From an uncultured archaeon (lineage in GTDB: Archaea > Hadarchaeota > Hadarchaeia > Hadarchaeales > Hadarchaeaceae), in contig CAKZTQ010000005.1 of assembly GCA_937921735.1 (NCBI GenBank), forward strand, positions 1 through 11,448: a stretch of DNA of 11,448 nucleotides, in the 5' to 3' direction. This document shows positions 2,234-9,850 of this stretch, piece by piece. The notes under the pieces are model-generated. The model was given only the letters and a program-made list of their open reading frames with translations, had not been told where the DNA came from and ran no database searches. Position 1 is the stretch's first letter; every line of letters begins with the position of its first letter. A program made the translations under genes and the position numbers.

Positions 2234-2691
2234 TCATTCGGTAGGTCTCAACTGCGCAGGCCGTGTCGCGATCACCAGGCCTGTCGCATGCGCCGTAGAG
2301 CTTCGCCATCGACGCCTGGCTGAAGTACCGCCGTTGGGTCTGCCACTCGTCGTGATGCTCCTCCAGCTAGGCACCCAGCAGGCGCAGTACCGCCGCGCCA
2401 GCTGCCGATTCAGCCACTCCAGGACGTTCGTCGAATGGATCCCCCGCCAGTGCTCCGATGGGAACCCCACGTACGCCAACTCGTAAAGCAGGGCGGCCAC
2501 CTGTGGAAACCGGCGCTGTAGGCTCACCGCCACCTGCTGCAGCTGCTGGCTGGCGCTGGCCCGGTCCGGGTGGGCGAAGGCAGTCCGCACCATGCCGGCT
2601 ACCATGCGCTGCGCGTGCTTGGTCAGCCGGGCAAGCTGGTGCAGGAAATGCACCTGCCAGCGCTGCCACGTGGCGCCCGCCAGCACCTCCC
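2234..2691 (-). pseudogene. IS256 transposase, C-terminal fragment
   Basis: GEVLAGATWQRWQVHF...FPSEHWRGIHSTNVLEWLNRQLARR / AAVLRLLGA*LEEHHDEWQTQRRYFS. Contains a frameshifting deletion at about 2391-2396 and an in-frame TAG at 2367-2369. Confidence 0.88.
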
Positions 2692-2696
2692 CTGAT

Positions 2697-2707
2697 ATGG
2701 AAGGGCC
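2697..2707. repeat. IS110/IS1111 right subterminal inverted repeat (ATGGAAGGGCC)
   Basis: Exact reverse complement of 4214-4224; lies 3 nt inside the core dinucleotide. Confidence 0.9.
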
Positions 2708-2708
2708 C

Positions 2709-2714
2709 CGTCAA
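2709..2714 (-). promoter_or_regulatory. Outward-facing -35 hexamer (TTGACG) of the IS circle-junction promoter
   Basis: After circularisation the junction reads TTGACG-18 nt-CACAAT, with the -10 supplied by the left end (4223-4228). Junction promoters of this kind are established for IS110/IS1111 elements. Confidence 0.7.
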
Positions 2715-2782
2715 GACCCCTCCGCGGTTTTCTTTGCTCGATGCTCTTATGTCTCGTCGTTCACCCACGTCACCTCCAAACA

Positions 2783-2980
2783 GGGTGCAGGAGGCAGCGG
2801 GCGAGTGAGGCGCGTGTCGACGGTGGATCAGCCTGATATTCGCGGGCTGGCTACCGCATGACCTTGATCCGTCGGGAGCTGCCTCGGTCTAGTGTCGCGG
2901 GCTTGGCTGACGCCGTACCGCATAGGAGGGCCGAGGACGCTCGGTACCGTGGCCGCACTCGCCCGATGCCCGCTGCACCC
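2783..2980 (-). ncRNA. Putative bridge RNA / seekRNA of the IS110 element
   Basis: Outer stems 2973-2980/2783-2790 (8 bp perfect) and 2956-2965/2798-2807 (10 bp perfect) enclose two similar stem-internal-loop-stem modules (2882-2936 and 2818-2874). Both modules contain ATGCGGTA...AGCCCGCGA. One loop carries ATATCAG, identical to the element right end plus core. Transcript ends are unknown. Confidence 0.72.
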
Positions 2981-3023
2981 CGCCCTATGCATCTTTACAA
3001 GAAGCCGCGACGACTGTTACCTG

Positions 3024-4142
3024 CTACGCCGCCTGCTTGACCTTGGCGCTTTCCACTTCGTGCGCAAGCTCCCAGATGAAGCCCAGCAGTTCACGGGCGA
3101 CGGCAGTGATCGCCTTCTGTTTCGTCTTGCCGCGACCCACGAGCCGGCGGTACTTGTGATTTAACCGCAGCTGCGCCCGCCAACTGATGCCCTTGATCGC
3201 TGCGCCCAGCCCCTCCTGCCGCCGGCGTAGCGCAATGCCCACCCGCGGCGGGTGGCGGTAATGCCAAGCCGCTTCGACGACCACGCGCCGTAGGTGGTGA
3301 TGGCCCGTCTTGGTGACTCCCCCACGCCGCCGACGGGAGCCGCTGGAATGCTCGCTCGGCACCAGGCCGGCATAGGCCATCAACTGCGTCGGCTTGCGAA
3401 AGCGGGCGACGGCACCGACCTCCGCGACGATCGTCGCCGCCGTGGTCAGGGCGACACCCCGTAGCGCCTTCAAGGCCTGGATCAAGGGCGCGTGTGCAGA
3501 AGCCTCAGCCCGTTGGGCGATCTCCCGGTCCAGGCGTGCGATGCGCTCCGTCGCCTCGTCCAGTGCCTGCAGGTATTCCTGCAGCACGATCTGCTGGGCC
3601 GGCTGATCCAGTTTCACCTGATCCAGCCACTGCCGGTGCCGCTGCGTCCAGGGCCGTACGCCCTGCGGCGGCCGCTGCCCCAGCCGCAGCAAAAACTTGC
3701 TCAGTTGATGGCGCTTGCGCTGCTGATCCTCTTTGGCGTCCTCCCGGGCCCGCACCAGGTCGCGCAGGGCTTCGTGCTCCGCATCCGGCACCCAGGCCGG
3801 CGTCAGCTCCCCGCTCCGGAGGAGCCGCGCCAACTGCCGCGCGTCCCGCCGATCGGTCTTGACACGGTCGCCCGGGCGCTTCGGCACCCGCGACGGCGCC
3901 ACGACGACACATGGCACGCCCATCGCGGTCAGCTGCCGGTACAACCCGTACCCGCACGACCCCGCCTCGCAGGCAACCACCAGGTTGTCCTTCGGGCCTA
4001 GCCTGCGGATCAGTTTCGCCACCGCCTCTGCCGTATGCGGGATCACACCCAGGTCGCGTACCTCGCCGCGGCCTTCGTCGGCCACCGACACCGCGATCGC
4101 ATCCTGATGCACATCTAGGCCTACAAACTTGGTATCCTGCAC
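3024..4142 (-). CDS. IS110-family transposase/recombinase (DEDD RuvC-like domain + Transposase_20-type domain)
   Basis: FVGLDVH, ACEAG, VKTDRRDA (D-E-D-D) and GLVPSEHSSG...TKTG motifs in an uninterrupted frame. GTG 4142 has an upstream GAGGGG SD; the ORF-track start GTG 4178 is an alternative. Confidence 0.95.
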   Translation of the reverse strand: MQDTKFVGLDVHQDAIAVSVADEGRGEVRDLGVIPHTAEAVAKLIRRLGPKDNLVVACEAGSCGYGLYRQLTAMGVPCVVVAPSRVPKRPGDRVKTDRRDARQLARLLRSGELTPAWVPDAEHEALRDLVRAREDAKEDQQRKRHQLSKFLLRLGQRPPQGVRPWTQRHRQWLDQVKLDQPAQQIVLQEYLQALDEATERIARLDREIAQRAEASAHAPLIQALKALRGVALTTAATIVAEVGAVARFRKPTQLMAYAGLVPSEHSSGSRRRRGGVTKTGHHHLRRVVVEAAWHYRHPPRVGIALRRRQEGLGAAIKGISWRAQLRLNHKYRRLVGRGKTKQKAITAVARELLGFIWELAHEVESAKVKQAA

Positions 4143-4213
4143 TTGGGCCAGCCCCCTCGCGTGGGTACTCTGTGCCACCTCGTCGAGAGTAGCCTACGGC
4201 TCCGCGAAGGGCT

Positions 4214-4224
4214 GGCCCTTCCAT
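4214..4224. repeat. IS110/IS1111 left subterminal inverted repeat (GGCCCTTCCAT)
   Basis: Exact reverse complement of 2697-2707; lies 5 nt inside the core (7 nt including it). Confidence 0.9.
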
Positions 4225-4231
4225 TGTGTCT

Positions 4232-4946
4232 ATGGCTCGCTTCAGCCCTTCGTGGGCGGCCGTAATCACCAGCCGCACGCCCCTCAGCCCCCGCGCCACC
4301 AAGCCGCGCAGAAACGCCAGCTAGAACTCATACGTCTCGGCCGCCCCGACGTCGAAGACCAGCACCTCCCGCTCTCCCGTCTCCCGCACGCCCACCGCCA
4401 CCACCGCCGCCACATTTACCACGCGCCCGTCCTGCCGTACCTTGACCTCCTCGGCGTCCAGCCTGACATACGGTGTTCCCCCTGTAGCGGCCGGTTCTGG
4501 AACCGCTGCATATGCTCGTCCAGCTCGGCACAGATGCGGAAGATCTCGCTCTTGCTTAAGCCCGCGATGCCGAGCGCCTGCACCAGCTCGTCCACCTTGC
4601 GCGCTCACCCCATGCACGTACGCTCCTGCACCACGGCCACAAGGCCGGCTCCGCGCGCCGTCGCGGCTCCGGCATGGCTGCGGGAAATAGCTGCCCCAGC
4701 GTAGCTTCGGATCTCCAGCTCGATGGTGCCCACGCGCCTGTCCCTGCGCCGGGCGCGGTACCCGTTCCCGTACTTGCTGCGCGACGGGGTGCGCTCGTAG
4801 CGCCGGGCGCCGATGACTCCGCTAACCTCGACATCCATCACCTGCTGGGCGAGCAACAGCAGTTCTTCCCGCAGCGCGCCGACCTCAGGCTCACCCTCGT
4901 ATTGGCGCGGCCGCTGGAGTATTGGTATCCTGGAGTCGGCGGTCAC
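4232..4946 (-). pseudogene. IS256 transposase, N-terminal fragment (multiple frameshifts and a stop)
   Basis: Segments in different frames: VMDVEVSGVIGARRYERT..NGYRAR..RVGTIELEI / SARKVDELVQALGIAGLSKSEISRICAELD / YVRLDA..VKVRQDGRVV..AVGVRETGEREVL..ETYEF*LAFLRGLVARGLRGVRLVI..HEGLKRAI. GTG start at 4946 follows AAGGGAGG. Confidence 0.9.
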
Positions 4947-5021: not shown

Positions 5022-6239
5022 TCACCAGCCACGGACTACCGGTACCCGCGGATTTACACCACCCACGACTCTAACGCTCCGGGCGCCATCGCGTTCTTCG
5101 AGCGAAGCATCACGCTTCCCCGCCATCCGGATTGCGCTTGGCACAGACATCGCTATGGCAGCAAAGATCCAATTGTAACCCACATAAACCAGAACATTAT
5201 CCGTAAATAAAACACACGCCAAGTAAAACGCCACCATCGTGCCATAAACAGAGCGCGCTAGCGAGTTTGCCCAAACCCAAATAAACACGGCCGTCCCAAT
5301 AAGTCCAAAATCATATACCATCCTTAGATAACTCGCGTGAGCGTGCACGATGCCAAACATTTCATGCAACAGTTTGCTTGATGAGCCGGCACCTCGCCCC
5401 CAAAAAGCTTCCTGAGCATGAAAACCGAAAATTTCCTCTTTCAACACCTGTATCCATCTATACCGGCCCATGCTCAAACCTTCAATCGATACGCCTGAGA
5501 ACAGTGAAGCGATTACATTAAAAACCCAATCCTGCACAACGGACATAACCAAAAAAACTGCGAAAATAACAAGGATAATTAGCCTCCTCGTACGAAATCT
5601 TGAGGCGGCCCTAGCCTTTCCAAGAATTAAACCCAACATAATAGTACAGATAGACGCTAAAATTGAAATTCGTTTAAAAAATACCACGCATAGGAAAATC
5701 GAGAAAACCGACTGCGCGATCCTACCGGACACAGCATACGCCGCTGCAAACGCACCTATCACCAATCCAATATTTGACTCGGTCGTCGCATACGAACGCA
5801 AATAATCAAAACTAATGCCTTCAAACCCTCGTCGTAAAATGTCAAAAACGCCAACGCAACTCGCCGACACCATGAGAATATCCACGTGTGCCATACTAAA
5901 CCGCAGATGAAATAAGTATGGTAACAAGCCAAGATTAATCAAAAGCAAATCGTTCAAAAAATACGGTGATGGTGACATTCCTAGAAGCACAGTCACTCCT
6001 TGCGCGAGAGCTATAAAGACAACCAGAAGTATCCTAGAACTACTTGCTCGCGATCTAGCTAGCGCGAATAAGACCGCTAATAACGGTAAATAAACAAGCC
6101 ACCTCGCACTTGCAGCCGGAAGAAGCAACCACATTGCAAGGTGCATGGATACGGCCATGCAATATAGCGCTTCTGCACTTACACGAAACTTGCTTCTCAT
6201 CATAACAGCCGACCGCCCCAGTAAGTATGGCATCCCCAT
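5022..6239 (-). CDS. Putative polysaccharide polymerase (Wzy) / O-antigen ligase-like membrane protein
   Basis: About 400 aa with many hydrophobic segments. SMGR...WGRGAG...HAHASYLRMVYDFGLIG resembles the O-antigen ligase/polymerase loop motif. Flanked by glycosyltransferases. Start uncertain; the last ~18 codons lie in the IS256 end. Confidence 0.75.
   Translation of the reverse strand: MGMPYLLGRSAVMMRSKFRVSAEALYCMAVSMHLAMWLLLPAASARWLVYLPLLAVLFALARSRASSSRILLVVFIALAQGVTVLLGMSPSPYFLNDLLLINLGLLPYLFHLRFSMAHVDILMVSASCVGVFDILRRGFEGISFDYLRSYATTESNIGLVIGAFAAAYAVSGRIAQSVFSIFLCVVFFKRISILASICTIMLGLILGKARAASRFRTRRLIILVIFAVFLVMSVVQDWVFNVIASLFSGVSIEGLSMGRYRWIQVLKEEIFGFHAQEAFWGRGAGSSSKLLHEMFGIVHAHASYLRMVYDFGLIGTAVFIWVWANSLARSVYGTMVAFYLACVLFTDNVLVYVGYNWIFAAIAMSVPSAIRMAGKRDASLEERDGARSVRVVGGVNPRVPVVRGW
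5051..5075. repeat. IS256-like left terminal inverted repeat (unpaired)
   Basis: GATTTACACCACCCACGACTCTAAC has the TTTACAC core also present in the IS256 end at 8970-8996, and sits where composition shifts from the AT-rich gene to GC-rich IS sequence. Confidence 0.55.
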
Positions 6240-6266: not shown

Positions 6267-6959
6267 CTAAAGTTTAAACAAAAGTGTTAAGTGATCCAAA
6301 TCCACCCACACTGGCCCGGCAAAAACGTCCCAGTCGGACGCCACAGTTCGTAATTCTCTAATTCCCTCTTCGTACTCCTGTCTCTGCGCATCATCAAATA
6401 ACACTATACATCCAGGTTTCATCCTTCCTTCAGCCTTCAGCGCAGCTAAGAATAACGCACAGTCTATCCTGTATATACCATCAATAACTATTAAGTCTGC
6501 TCGTGCAAACGGAACACTCGTAGGTCGCACATAGAGTTCTTTCCTATCGGCGTAAATAACGTTCAGATTAGGCACGTTACGCGTAATTGCAAAATATTTG
6601 ATCGTTTCATACCACCTTTTGTCGTGCTCTATCGCCCAAACCTCGCATCCGAATCGTAAAAACCACGCGGTGGAATTCCCTGATCCCCACTCAACTACTG
6701 TACTAATCTTCCCCGCTGACAGTACATTCGTTAGCCAACGAATTGCACCAATCGCATAATGCGGTCTCGGATCAGTCGGATTAAACTTACTCTTGTTTTT
6801 CACATAGTAATCCAAGTAATCAAGGCCAGGATCCGTAACCATCAGCACTAAAAACCGCAACCAATCCGGTGACAGTGCTCGCCTAAGCCTTGTGAGGCGC
6901 TGCAATTTGCGAGCCATTCGAGACATCGAGTCATCACCGCTATCCTCAGAGCAAAACAT
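6267..6959 (-). CDS. Putative class I SAM-dependent methyltransferase-like protein
   Basis: VVEWGSGNST (motif I-like), AIEHD (motif II-like), DLIVIDG and VLFDD strands. Alternative start at ATG 6926. Confidence 0.7.
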   Translation of the reverse strand: MFCSEDSGDDSMSRMARKLQRLTRLRRALSPDWLRFLVLMVTDPGLDYLDYYVKNKSKFNPTDPRPHYAIGAIRWLTNVLSAGKISTVVEWGSGNSTAWFLRFGCEVWAIEHDKRWYETIKYFAITRNVPNLNVIYADRKELYVRPTSVPFARADLIVIDGIYRIDCALFLAALKAEGRMKPGCIVLFDDAQRQEYEEGIRELRTVASDWDVFAGPVWVDLDHLTLLFKL

Positions 6960-6977: not shown

Positions 6978-7922
6978 CTAAGCTTGCGAACTTATCATTC
7001 TTAGCTTCAAAAAGTTACAAAATGCATCTGGCAACTCCTCTGCAAAATCCAATTCAACTTCCGCAGACGGGTGGTCCACTACTTTTTGCCTCATCCACCC
7101 AGGGAACCATATCGCTGGACATTGTCCCAAGTATATTGCCCACATTGAGAACGTCGACCCTGACGTCACTAAAACGAACGAGCTCGCCAAAGTGAGCAGA
7201 TCAGCTATAGCTGAGGTTCGAATAATGTGTAGATTTTTCACCTTCATTAGAGGACCCATTTCCCAGGGGCTACCATCTGTAAACACGTAAACAGGTGTGT
7301 TGCTGCCGAGTTGCTGGCGAAGTTTGTCAATCTGATTAATATACCAAGTCAGAGGTAGCCTGCACTTCCAAGGATTCTCTTTGACGAATTCTGTGTCCGG
7401 AGCAGATGGCAAATCACCCATCCGCACATGCACACTTATGGAGGGCCATGGCAGGGTTCGAATAAGGTTTCTATGATGACGTGAGACTATTTTATAAAGC
7501 TCACATTTAATCAACGGATGCCAGCCCAAAACGGGCCTAAAGAGATTCTTCATACCCTCGAATACAAACACCCAGTCACCATTCGATGTGTTCATATCAG
7601 ATGAATTTGAATTAAAATCCTCTTCAGTCATCTTCCTCGAGCTAAGAAGAATTCTCATTTTCTTCAGCCCGAAAACATATTCATCAGTAGGAGTAAAGTA
7701 TCCTATATAGTGCCTCTTTATGAGCTCGAAGGCTATGTCTAACCGCCTTGACAAGTATAACTGGGGCCATGTAGGCCAAATTAATCGTAATCGAAAACGT
7801 TTTGCTACTACAACAGCCCTTGCCCAAGGAAACAGCAGATTCCCTAAGCCTGCTCCAGAGATTCTCATAAAGCCAAGGTGCAGATATTTCCACGGTAGCC
7901 TCGGATAGACAAATACTGCCAT
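6978..7922 (-). CDS. Glycosyltransferase family 11 (alpha-1,2-fucosyltransferase-like)
   Basis: GLGNLLF, SVHVRMGD (HxRxGD), VFTD and STFSMWA are GT11 hallmark motifs. ATG 7922 has GAGGTG 8 nt upstream; the ORF track uses GTG 7931. Confidence 0.85.
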   Translation of the reverse strand: MAVFVYPRLPWKYLHLGFMRISGAGLGNLLFPWARAVVVAKRFRLRLIWPTWPQLYLSRRLDIAFELIKRHYIGYFTPTDEYVFGLKKMRILLSSRKMTEEDFNSNSSDMNTSNGDWVFVFEGMKNLFRPVLGWHPLIKCELYKIVSRHHRNLIRTLPWPSISVHVRMGDLPSAPDTEFVKENPWKCRLPLTWYINQIDKLRQQLGSNTPVYVFTDGSPWEMGPLMKVKNLHIIRTSAIADLLTLASSFVLVTSGSTFSMWAIYLGQCPAIWFPGWMRQKVVDHPSAEVELDFAEELPDAFCNFLKLRMISSQA

Positions 7923-8515
7923 TAATGCCACACCTCGCTAAAGAGCTCGGCATTTGGATTGACCCAAAACGCAATACTGCGGTCGGAGCGCGTTCCCGCG
8001 GTGAGGATCACGGAGGCACCGGGTGAGTTGCCGGCCGCGAACTCGGGGGCCGGAACCGAGGGGCGCCGCTCCCTTAGCGCCAGTGCCCGGCCGTTCCGGT
8101 TCTCGAAGGCTTCGCGTATCAGCGCCCGCACCCAGTTGCCCGTGCCCAGGAGCACGGTGGACTTGTTGACCACCACCGTGAAGCGGCTGTTCAGGTGCTC
8201 GCCGATGGCGCAGGCGGCCTGCTCCACCGCGTCCAGCACGGGCCGGGCGTCGGGCGCGGCGGGCGTGCCCACCGCGATGAACACCGCGTCGGCGTGGGGA
8301 ACCGCCTCCCGGTAGTCGGTGGCGAAGCGGATCCGGGCGCGCACGTCGGCCAGCAGGCGCTCGGCGTGGGGCTCGTAGAAGGGAAGACGGCCCTTTCGCA
8401 GGGAGGCGATCTTCTGCCGGTCGATGTCCACGCAGGTCACTTCGTGGCCCAGGTAGGCGAAGACCAGGCCGGTGGTGAGGCCGACGTAGCCGGTGCCGAG
8501 GATGGCGATGTGCAT
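7922..8515 (-). pseudogene. ugd: Truncated UDP-glucose/GDP-mannose 6-dehydrogenase family gene (N-terminal NAD-binding part only)
   Basis: AGGAGG SD and ATG 8515; IAILGTGYVGL, VDID, PFYEP, FIAVGTP and VNKSTV motifs. Recognisable similarity stops at about 8087 (~143 codons). The PEFLREG and catalytic-Cys regions are absent. Confidence 0.88.
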
Positions 8516-8969
8516 AACCGGTATCCTCCTGTGCGACGGGCCTGAGCCGGGTGCCGGGGGACAGACGCGGTCCACAGGCGGCGGAGGGCGAGCGGGCAGC
8601 TCCGCAGGCGGTCATTACTTCCACTACTTCCAGGTTCCGGAGACCCGGGTTTCCAGTGCTCCCGACGCAAATAACAGGCCCTGGTACCAGAATCGAGTAC
8701 CGCATCACGGGTTCCGGACACTGTATCCCGATGTGCCGGGTGTCCTTGCCGCCGTAAGACCGGTCCAAGGCCGCTTGCTCCACTCAGCCCAGCCCGTCAG
8801 GACCCTTTGCTTGGCCCCATTCGCAGGACCTCTGGGAGATTCCTGCCAGCGGGGCTGCTGTCCCAGCGAGCAACTTGGGGAGCGCGGGAAGGCTCTCACT
8901 GGGGGCTGAGATCCGCTACCGACCTACTGCTACGCCGCCCATGACGCTTTGCCCGTGTGCACGCTGGAC

Positions 8970-9850
8970 GGGGGTTCCGTCAATAGGTGTGTAAACGTGC
9001 TCAGGCAGCGTAGACCTTGGCCAGCAACTCCAGGGCATTGAGCCGCCGGAACCTCTTCTGGGCCACCATCAGCATCTTCCAGATCACCGCCGTGGCTCGC
9101 TCCACCTTCTTGAACCGCTTCGCCGCATCTGTCCGCAGCCGTAGCGCGGCGAAGGGCGACTCCACCACATTGGTGGTCCGCAGATGGCGCCAGTGCTCCT
9201 TGGGGTACCGGTAGAACGTCACCATCCGCTCCCAGTCCCGCCCCAGCGTCTCCGCCGCCTTCCCGTACCCGTGACGGTGGCACCACTCCTCGAACTCCTT
9301 GCGCTTGCGCTCCGCCTCCGCCCGCGTCGAGGCGTAGGCGATGGCGCCCAGCCTCGACTTGGCTACCGCCTGCTGCCGGCGCGGCAACTGTTCCAACACA
9401 TTGAGCACCTTGTGGTTCCAGCAACGTTGCTCCTCCGCGTCCGGCCAGACGTTGCGCAGCGCGCCCCAGATCCCCAGGTGCCCGTCCCCGATCACCAGCC
9501 GGGGGGCGTTCATCCCCCGCTCCCGCAGGTCCCGCAGCACCGCCGACCAGCTCTCCACCGACTCCCGGTAGCCTGGCACGACCGACACCACCTCCTTGCG
9601 GCTGTCCACCAGGCCCGCTCAGGCCGATCAGCAGCGCCGCCCGCTCCCACTCCAGCCCCGCCTTCACGTACACCCCGTCCACCCACAGGTACACCACTGC
9701 AACCCCTCCAGCCGCCGCCTCCGCACGCCTCCCACTCCCCCTGCCACCGCTCCAGCTAGGCGCGCCACGGTGCGCGCAGAAAGCGGTGCCTCCTCGCCCA
9801 AAAGCCCCCACAGGGCCAGGTCGGAGTCCCCCACGACGCAGCCGGCCCGT
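8970..9850 (-). mobile_element. 5'-truncated IS256-family element (a different IS256 type from the one at 2226-5075)
   Basis: Transposase motifs plus a right end TTTACACACCTATTGACGGAACCCCC (minus strand, 8970-8995) immediately after the stop. No left end visible; left boundary approximate. Confidence 0.85.
9001..9830 (-). pseudogene. IS256 transposase fragment
   Basis: GDSDLALWGLLGEEAPLSARTVARL / VVYLWVDGVYVKAGLE / GYRESVESWSAVLRDLRERG..LVIGDGHLGIWGAL..EQRCWNHK..WRHLRTTNVVESPFAALRLRT spread over three frames; N-terminus missing. Confidence 0.9.

Follow-up and report, generated by a model that had tools for sequence, protein, structure and literature searches.

A predicted bridge RNA downstream of an IS110-family transposase gene in an uncultured archaeon, and its conservation among relatives of ISSso6 and ISEc45

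A predicted two-module RNA downstream of the gene for the transposase

The DNA analyzed here is an 11,448-nucleotide stretch from an uncultured archaeon (contig CAKZTQ010000005.1), referred to below as the window. Positions 4231-2692 of its minus strand are very probably one apparently intact insertion sequence of the IS110 family with IS1111-type organization, in which the non-coding stretch at about 2981-2782, downstream of the transposase gene (tnp), encodes the bridge RNA, or seekRNA, of the element. The alignment, covariance model and loop/flank comparison that the initial annotation had proposed as a check showed that the structure is conserved and that its loops covary with the insertion-site flanks among relatives. 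All features lie on the minus strand, unless stated otherwise.

Two modules had been described, at 2936-2882 and 2874-2818, and every string of that description is present base for base. Module 1 (2882-2936), the predicted target-binding loop, comprises the helix P1 (CCUCGG at 2936-2931 and CCGAGG at 2887-2882, both read directly from the sequence), an internal loop and the helix P2 (GCGG/CCGC) with its hairpin. The 5' side of the internal loop reads CCCUCCUAU (2922-2930) and leads into GCGG..CCGC, while the 3' side reads GACACUAGA (2896-2888, or 2887-2896 with the C that follows) and comprises CACU for the left target, the AG core and AC, the first bases of the element. This 3' side would pair with the bottom strand, as a left-target guide followed by handshake-like bases.

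Module 2 (2818-2874), the predicted donor-binding loop, consists of the helix P3, CGACG(GAUCA)/(UGAUC)..CGUCG, an internal loop and the helix P4 (GCGG/CCGC) with its hairpin. The strands of P3 read CGACGGAUCA (2874-2865) and UGAUCCACCGUCG (2830-2818), and those of P4 GCGG (2857-2854) and CCGC (2845-2842). The internal loop is formed by AGGUCAU on the 5' side (2858-2864), the register of which is uncertain, and by GAAUAUCAGGC on the 3' side (2831-2841). The latter contains AUAUCAG, the putative left-donor guide, which the initial annotation had correctly matched to the right end and the AG core (7/7); the match covers the final five bases of that end and the core.

An outer stem around both modules had also been proposed. 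The minimum-free-energy fold of 3030-2690 indeed includes the two modules and a long enclosing helix, here termed the basal helix P0, whose 5' arm (2937-2981) pairs with 2816-2782 at -58.3 kcal/mol; the 3' arm (2782-2816) is delimited by the fold and by comparison of the arms among relatives. The complete fold has a free energy of -150 kcal/mol (z -2.11) and was equalled by 2 of 100 shuffled sequences. As the single-sequence score is only weakly beyond chance, the case for an RNA rests on the relatives.

Conservation among relatives

A first set of relatives was assembled by running a transposase profile against a single genome of each species, which yielded 80 loci from many phyla with transposases 48-62% identical. 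In a blastn search with 2937-2817, the RNA stretch was found in 71 of these 80 genome loci, at 67-85% DNA identity and with E values down to 5e-23, in all cases downstream of the transposase and on its strand. Sixty-five distinct copies were aligned with the window and used to build a covariance model, R1. This model detected the RNA in eight of ten genome loci left out of its building (the contigs of the other two stop before the region) and in 73 of 80 held-out metagenome loci, fetched after the model was built. In total, the RNA was recovered in more than 140 loci. The window itself scores 118.8 bits by construction, since it belongs to the training set; the held-out loci range from 58 to 124 bits.

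The nearest named relatives, as judged by the transposase, are the ISEc45 family (48% identical) and the ISSso6 family (41%). R1 also matched downstream of an annotated ISSso6-family transposase (83.4 bits) and downstream of ISEc45-family transposases on two plasmids (31.9 bits each). The element belongs to a clade with ISSso6 and ISEc45.

In addition, contigs of other metagenome samples (X2 and X3) match the window at 90% identity or more, almost only at the conserved RNA core (2818-2901). The word depth of these contigs reaches 329, far above that of pieces matching the transposase, which suggests that many related elements share the stretch in those samples. A relative approximately 93% identical was present in one sediment run.

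A conserved structure with compensatory changes

The four helices P1 (CCUC/GAGG), P2 (GCGG/CCGC), P3 (CGACG/CGUCG) and P4 (GCGG/CCGC) were recovered by RNAalifold from the alignment. In the first set, 86.1% of the cells were paired, compared with 20-46% when the 3' partners were slid, and the covariation score was reached in none of 500 shuffles. The corresponding values in the held-out set, where the alignment was fitted to the model, were 83.3% versus 31-45%. P1, P2, the outer part of P3 (P3a) and P4 were paired at 87-99%, with P3a and P4 at 98-99% in both sets. Compensatory changes occur in P2, P1 and P4; those in P2 include CG to AU (12 cases), CG to UA (5), GC to AU (22) and GC to CG (9).

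The basal helix cannot be aligned by sequence; nevertheless, its arms, taken as the 45 bases on the 5' side of P1 and the 45 on the 3' side of P3, pair with each other in the relatives. When the arms were compared with shuffled arms, z was below -2 in 125 of 129 loci. The arms of a given locus pair with each other at -47.0 kcal/mol, versus -26.7 kcal/mol with foreign arms, and the own arm ranked first among eleven in 52 of 57 non-redundant loci. The stretch therefore has the conserved structure with two internal loops, supported by covariation, by which a bridge RNA or seekRNA is recognized.

A further pairing is seen in both the window fold and the family consensus, where it was noted without counting: a conserved GGAG 5' of P1 can pair with a conserved CUCC in the linker between the modules (alignment columns ~10-17 and ~90-98). 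Its counterpart in the window is CGAG (2944-2941) with CUCC (2878-2875), which form three pairs and would lengthen module 1, adding a second internal loop.

The loops and the DNA that they match

The ends of the related elements were located by their ATG..CAT subterminal repeat, and the loops were then compared with the flanks in 54 loci of the first set, the window being left out. For the held-out set, the comparison covered every locus with both flanks (55 in number), and obvious mis-calls were kept.

In the relatives, the reverse complement of the 5' side of module 1 corresponds to the core and right-flank bases 1 to 5 (RT1-5). The fractions of matching loci in the first set were 0.94 and 0.91 for the core and 0.89, 0.87, 0.83, 0.80 and 0.61 for RT1-5, for which shuffled pairs gave 0.25-0.34. 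Taken together, 216 of 270 RT1-5 positions matched in the first set, compared with 76.9 +/- 7.9 after shuffling (maximum 119 in 2000), and 213 of 275 in the held-out set, compared with 85.3 +/- 7.9 (maximum 112). The 3' side of module 1 reads as the final three left-flank bases, followed by the core and by base 1 of the element. Left-flank positions LT-3, -2 and -1 matched at 0.67, 0.93 and 0.98 in the first set (shuffled 0.26, 0.29 and 0.54), and LT-3 and -2 at 78 of 110 positions in the held-out set (shuffled 29.4 +/- 4.7). AG is present at the left junction in nearly all relatives, and the two core bases of the 3' loop side matched at 1.00/1.00 in the first set and 0.91/0.93 in the held-out set. 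In the window copy, UAG was confirmed to match the T that precedes the core together with the core itself.

Module 2, by comparison, is nearly constant among the relatives, as are the element ends. Its 3' side equals the last five bases of the right end, 5/5, in 103 of 111 loci; where the right end varies (ATT, ACC, AGA or ATG), the same change appears in the donor loop at 8 of 11 loci. The reverse complement of its 5' side contains GAC in 57 of the 63 loci whose left end begins with AC, and ..TC in 36 of the 43 loci whose left end begins with TC. The assignment of module 1 to the target and module 2 to the donor, already suggested in the initial annotation, holds because module 1 covaries with the flanks on a family-wide scale, while module 2 copies the element ends. 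Covariation of a target loop with the flanks on both DNA strands, a hallmark of bridge RNAs, is thus observed at the level of the family and not in the window copy alone. The second hallmark, a donor loop that matches the ends of its own element around the core, is present, with three bases on the left-end side here. When the two post-core bases of the donor loop were compared with bases 1 and 2 of the right flank, as for a handshake, the match was too weak to support one (0.24 and 0.38, versus 0.15 and 0.34 after shuffling).

In eight relatives (L013, L033, L041, L058, L073, L075, L080 and L081) AG is replaced by AA or AC at the right junction, a change with which the 5' target guide agrees. 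The same eight keep AG at the left junction and in the 3' guide. Recombination of an AG donor core with a target core unlike it at the second base would fit this pattern.

The loop data also bear on another view of the conserved structure, namely that it is a cis element, either a 3' stabilizer or terminator of the transposase mRNA or a group of transposase-bound DNA sites or pseudo-ends, rather than a guide RNA. In this view, the likeness of the loops to the element ends would be a repeat at the level of DNA. Such an element, being double-stranded or strand-neutral, would be expected to lack a strand signal in the wobble test described below, as is the case. Moreover, AUAUCAG as DNA reproduces the right end letter for letter, and extra end-like boxes of ISPpu9 give rise to alternative circles (PMC12288879). 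However, a cis element does not account for bases of module 1 that change with the host flanks, one side being antisense and the other sense, nor for the fact that both loop sides stop at the core. Neither a run of U nor a match in the terminator scan was found after the basal helix, and experiments on relatives of the same architecture revealed an RNA bound to the transposase and responsible for the choice of target (PMC11187229). We give this view only a very slight chance of being correct.

Observations that weigh against the assignment

Several observations speak against the bridge-RNA reading or limit its details, and they are brought together in this section. Among the helices, the inner part of P3 (GAUCA/UGAUC) was paired at 81% in the first set and at 47% in the held-out set, and consequently is not a general feature. 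Nine of the 64 loci of the first set were dropped from the loop/flank comparison: six had ends off the family pattern (a post hoc decision), one lacked the 5' loop and two had short flanks. Since the loci are related to one another, the shuffle controls overstate their independence. The handshake-like match to the first base of the element (LE1) reached 1.00, versus 0.63 after shuffling, in the first set only, and a second base of this kind was at background level. The register of the 5' donor guide differs by one base between the AC and TC subgroups, and in the window this guide forms only three contiguous pairs (GUC with the core G and AC). The initial annotation had itself called the exact register uncertain; this caution remains justified for the 5' donor side, with its approximately three paired bases. 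A scan of 2500-4400 against Rfam 15 (E up to 10), whose content for bridge RNAs was not checked, returned no matching family; the sole match was a chance miRNA match inside tnp (E 3.6). Likewise, the sequencing-run search listed no RNA run that contains the stretch.

The strand of the RNA

The strand of the RNA is likewise a point of weakness, as it was assigned from guide geometry, the promoter at the circle junction and published systems, whereas the sequence itself does not prove it. Across all helices, G:U pairs on the transposase strand are fewer than A:C appositions (73 versus 100), and the opposite-strand fold of the whole region is the more stable one in 41 of 57 loci, with a mean advantage of 4.6 kcal/mol. 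Both counts are as expected if the functional RNA were read from the plus strand of the window, and the logic of pairing with two DNA strands is formally symmetric. In the well-supported helices, however, G:U exceeds A:C by 27 to 14, although 17 of the 27 come from one pair; the values for the basal helix are 141 and 126.

The geometry of the guides also argues for the transposase strand. There, every guide runs 5' to 3' toward the core and the 3' target guide continues 1-2 bases into donor sequence, just as in IS621 the core stands at the 3' end of every guide and is followed by the handshake bases (PMC11208160, PMC11208158). On the plus strand, in contrast, the guides would begin at the core and run outward, unlike those of IS621. 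The sole conserved promoter, TTGACG-18-CACAAT, formed at the circle junction and scoring 9/12, reads the transposase strand; a junction-spanning promoter of at least 9/12 was found in 57 of 58 loci. Sequenced seekRNAs of the IS1111 type map downstream of tnp, and in ISEc11 a promoter is reported only at the circle junction (PMC11187229). A plus-strand RNA thus appears highly improbable.

Within the linear element, the promoter scan revealed no sigma-70-like promoter.

The occupied site of the window copy

The element lies within a pseudogene for an IS256/Mutator-type transposase, its insertion target. The right half of this pseudogene (2234-2691) matches positions 244-349 of the Pfam profile PF00872, and the left half (4232 to ~4700) matches positions 213-241. 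Profile positions 241 and 244 join across the element with one split codon between them, such that the host frame is contiguous; for this reason the rejoined site, ..CCAT-AG-GGGAGG.., is considered sound. The left half of the pseudogene carries stops and frame breaks, a case of one mobile element nested inside a dead one.

The loops of the window copy predict the cognate target ..CACT-AG-GAGGG.., while the occupied site reads ..CCAT-AG-GGGAG... The initial annotation had reported that CCCUCCUAU is complementary to the reconstructed target at 7 of 9 positions. This match, of the reverse complement ATAGGAGGG with the rejoined site ATAGGGGAG, is real; it proved uninformative, being at the level of chance. 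Four of the matching bases (AUAG) are conserved throughout the family, and of the five variable bases three agree, which is not above chance. Beyond T-AG, the occupied site agrees with the guides of its own element at three of five right-flank positions and neither of two left-flank positions, i.e., at 3 of 7 informative positions. Shuffled pairs of guide and site reach at least 3/7 in 28% of cases. Relatives as poorly matched are few (14 of 109, some with mis-called ends), and 89 of 109 match at five positions or more. These figures count against the reading for this copy in particular.

Because the occupied site matches only at chance level, the cognate target has to be read from the loops and not from the flanks. 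The initial annotation had described a complete candidate programmable recombinase, definable in its enzyme, RNA, donor and target. Of these, the target is not the occupied site and must be predicted from the loops. One relative with the same right guide (L091) sits at AG-GAGGG. In the assembly from which the window derives, four exact ACTAGGAGGG sites were detected, none of them occupied. Three of the four (L165, L167 and L168) agree with the prediction at 11/11 informative positions and are candidate cognate sites; L168 (G000 contig 45, near 36295) agrees at 15/16 when the prediction is extended into P1 stem bases. The predicted 10-mer target is not enriched in the same genome, with 51 matches at one mismatch or fewer compared with 131 for the reversed control.

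The most likely origin of the copy is an off-target insertion or one guided in trans, and both fit the data. Since the RNA and the enzyme look intact, these two routes are favored over decay. To the first of them, a relaxed or half-matched insertion of a working element whose guides are intact and whose cognate site lies elsewhere, we assign an even chance. The transposase frame is intact with every invariant residue kept, and the R1 score of the window lies near the top of the held-out range, although the window was in the training set. The match to the site is confined to the core, the T at -1 and the three right-flank bases; the position of L091 and the unoccupied ACTAGGAGGG sites point in the same direction, and insertion of IS621 at partly matched sites has been reported (bioRxiv 10.64898/2026.08.31.748434). 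On the other hand, sites this poor occur only in the 14 relatives mentioned, some of them mis-called, and the 10-mer is not enriched.

Insertion at a matching site under the guidance of an RNA whose loops were different, belonging either to a sibling element acting in trans or to this element before its loops were replaced, is the less likely of the two routes. Target-matching bases have been naturally swapped between the close relatives ISEc11 and ISXne4, and a seekRNA can work with diverged transposases (PMC11187229). A sibling could also be missing from the assembly, which is 83% complete. However, this 1.06-Mb assembly contains no second copy of the element, and even the best guide pair among the 109 relatives matches the occupied site at no more than 5/7. 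Replacement would furthermore require that at least four of the seven guide positions changed while all conserved RNA positions stayed intact.

A donor-like half-match was also considered as the cause of the insertion and was rejected, as no match was seen by eye between the site and the donor-loop strings. The assembly holds no other copy of the IS256-type host gene, and thus no empty site for comparison. Among the contigs from four DNA runs, one source-like contig covers the region unchanged; none shows a join across the element or a circle junction, and, being contigs only, they are silent on expression and on absence. There is accordingly no second copy, empty-site contig or circle contig by which an off-target event could be dated.

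Borders and ends of the element

The whole insertion sequence (2692-4231) spans 1540 bases with both copies of the AG core, or 1538 with one. On the minus strand, CCAT[AG]ACACA-ATGGAAGGGCC is the sequence of its left junction and GGCCCTTCCAT-ATC[AG]GGGAGG that of its right junction. The left core copy (4230-4231) forms the left junction and is followed by the left end (4214-4229), in which ACACA precedes the subterminal inverted repeat ATGGAAGGGCC. The hexamer CACAAT (4228-4223), the -10-like part of the circle-junction promoter, lies inside this end. The right end (2692-2714) begins with the -35-like TTGACG (2714-2709), followed by the right subterminal repeat GGCCCTTCCAT (2707-2697), the ATC extension (2696-2694) and the right core copy (2693-2692), which forms the right junction. 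The two repeats, an ATG..CAT pair found by script, agree over 11 bp at 11/11 positions, with ACACA and ATC as terminal extensions, and a subterminal repeat with short extensions is also present in most relatives.

The absence of terminal inverted repeats and a target-site duplication limited to the shared AG dinucleotide are as in the IS110 family. The non-coding bases are unequally distributed: the stop codon (3024) is separated from the right core by 331 bases, and the first possible start from the left core by 51. The long downstream non-coding region, the short left end and subterminal repeats within the range of 7-17 bp with short extensions are all features of the IS1111 group.

The transposase

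The transposase, an IS110-family DEDD enzyme (bridge recombinase), is encoded at 3024-4178 in an open frame of 384 amino acids. The true start is probably the GTG at 4142, which would give 372 amino acids, since the nearest relative in the protein collection (92% identity) has that length. Pfam matches were obtained to PF01548 (76.2 bits, cut-off 29) and PF02371 (77.3 bits, cut-off 21.3), and the NCBIfam model NF033542, "IS110 family RNA-guided transposase", matched at 267.5 bits against a cut-off of 140. All columns invariant across 35 homologues (the window included) are kept, among them D22, E71, D109, D112 and S278-S279-G280. Judged by motif context and the published description, without structural alignment, D22, E71, D109, D112 and the Ser would correspond to D11, E60, D102, D105 and S241 of IS621. 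The protein thus carries the features of the IS110 family: an N-terminal RuvC-like DEDD domain, a C-terminal Tnp domain, the catalytic D/E/D/D and the Ser of the SG motif. Distant sequence matches to the solved ISCro4 and IS621 transposases were also found.

Residues 179-292 are similar, below threshold, to NF052498, a model of TIGR-Tas RNA-guided endonucleases (39.2 bits against a cut-off of 100), and to solved TasH chains (E 1.3e-04). These similarities fall between the two Pfam domains and at the onset of the C-terminal domain.

Comparison with known systems

A location downstream of tnp, as in the IS1111 group, had been pointed out in the initial annotation. The position, the 11-bp subterminal repeats and the order of the guide strands all fit the published accounts (PMC11187229, PMC11208160). 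Elements of the IS1111 type have a downstream non-coding region, subterminal repeats and a top-strand match located 5' of the bottom-strand match (PMC11187229), and a bridge RNA with a two-loop model was predicted in the right end of 93% of IS1111 elements (PMC11208160). The likeness to those with described seekRNAs (ISEc11, ISPa11, ISKpn4 and ISPst6; PMC11187229) extends to a DEDD transposase with the GL-P----SG motif, a non-coding region 3' of tnp, subterminal repeats with short extensions, a promoter at the junction only, and two matches that overlap at the insertion point in the same order. Unlike the IS1111 family, for which 330-350 amino acids are given (PMC11187229), the transposase here has 372-384 and so lies outside that range. 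In the supplementary matrix of the same paper, ISSso6 and ISEc45 stand among IS110-type names, beside ISCARN28 and outside the tight IS1111 cluster, which concerns the order of names only. The IS1111 assignment would therefore be one of organization and not of transposase clade. That work describes the target-matching part, with a peak RNA of 82-96 nt, whereas approximately 200 nt are conserved here, including both loops and a basal helix of ~35-40 bp.

The bridge RNA of IS621 (PMC11208160, PMC11208158) similarly has two internal loops, for target and donor, and one guide per DNA strand in every loop, both with the two-base core. Its 3'-side guide carries extra post-core bases that match the other DNA partner, the handshake guides of PMC11208158, and its target loop is variable while its donor loop is conserved across relatives, again as observed here. 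In contrast to IS621, whose RNA lies 5' of tnp, the RNA of the present element lies 3' of the gene, the order of the guide strands is reversed relative to left and right, and the core is AG instead of CT. The left-target guide comprises approximately three bases plus the core, and a long basal helix replaces the 5' stem-loop. The proteins are distant (phmmer E 3.8e-08 over the C-terminal half).

By R1, ISSso6 and ISEc45 have the same two-module RNA downstream of the transposase. They and ISCARN28 differ from the window element in their proteins (identity below 50%) and in their target guides. ISCARN28 is one of the six elements for which a bridge RNA was drawn by Durrant et al. (PMC11208160, Extended Data Fig. 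10c), and its domain stretches display the clade motifs DRVKTDRRDA, LMAYLGLVPSE.SSG and GGITKTGN, as judged by eye. A full-text literature search on ISCARN28, ISSso6 and ISEc45 returned, among the listed titles and abstracts, no paper on their RNA beyond the mention of ISCARN28 by Durrant et al. ISPpu9 of Pseudomonas putida (PMC12288879), another IS110-family element, shares recombination at an AG found at both junctions, the formation of circles and site specificity. In contrast to the present element, it is described with a strong promoter of its own and none at the junction, the additional small RNAs Asr9 and Ssr9, and a bridge RNA located elsewhere.

Neighboring genes

The element is surrounded by a run of genes on the same (minus) strand, at 1053-2309, 5022-6239, 6267-6959, 6978-7931 and 8930-9811. 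The matches of these neighbors include a GT4 glycosyltransferase, a weak methyltransferase match and a GT11-like fucosyltransferase, and two frames are without a Pfam match. The neighborhood points to a surface-polysaccharide locus.

Proposed course of transposition

Excision would convert the element into a circle, in which the right end is joined to the left end at one AG, and the promoter thereby formed (TTGACG-18-CACAAT) would read through the transposase gene and the non-coding region. The predicted RNA would adopt the fold established by comparison, a long basal helix carrying two modules, each of stem, internal loop and hairpin. The donor loop, whose complementarity to the circle junction is apparent from the sequences, would hold that junction, as suggested by work on IS621 and ISEc11, and the target loop would hold the target, in agreement with the family-wide covariation. 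By analogy with IS621, the DEDD/Ser enzyme would then exchange strands at the AG core, and the post-core AC of the 3' target guide would pair with the incoming left end in a handshake-like manner. The system is of a known kind, with a mechanism as in the published bridge RNA and seekRNA elements, and the known mechanism is left unchanged.

Implications for the family

The analysis contributes the model of the clade with its guide registers, the conserved basal helix, the short asymmetric target guides and an occupied site that differs from the cognate one. IS110-family recombinases and their bridge or seek RNAs are under development for the programmable insertion, excision and inversion of DNA. 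To these the window contributes a natural system that is complete and comes from an uncultured marine organism, and a covariance model with guide registers is now available for a widespread clade that includes ISSso6 and ISEc45. For annotation, the lesson is that the 3' non-coding region is a gene, from whose RNA the cognate target can be read, and that the occupied site may differ from it.

It is tentatively proposed, as a somewhat doubtful extension, that the ISSso6/ISEc45-like clade possesses a bridge-RNA build of its own, in which a basal helix of ~35-40 bp clamps both loops and the target guides are short and strongly asymmetric, with five bases plus the core on the right, and three bases, the core and one base of the product junction on the left. 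The basal helix, which is kept in structure and not in sequence, may be what singles out the RNA, at the 3' end of the transcript from the junction promoter, to be excised. If this proposal is true, short asymmetric guides would allow natural off-target jumps, like the insertion inside another transposase gene seen in this archaeon.

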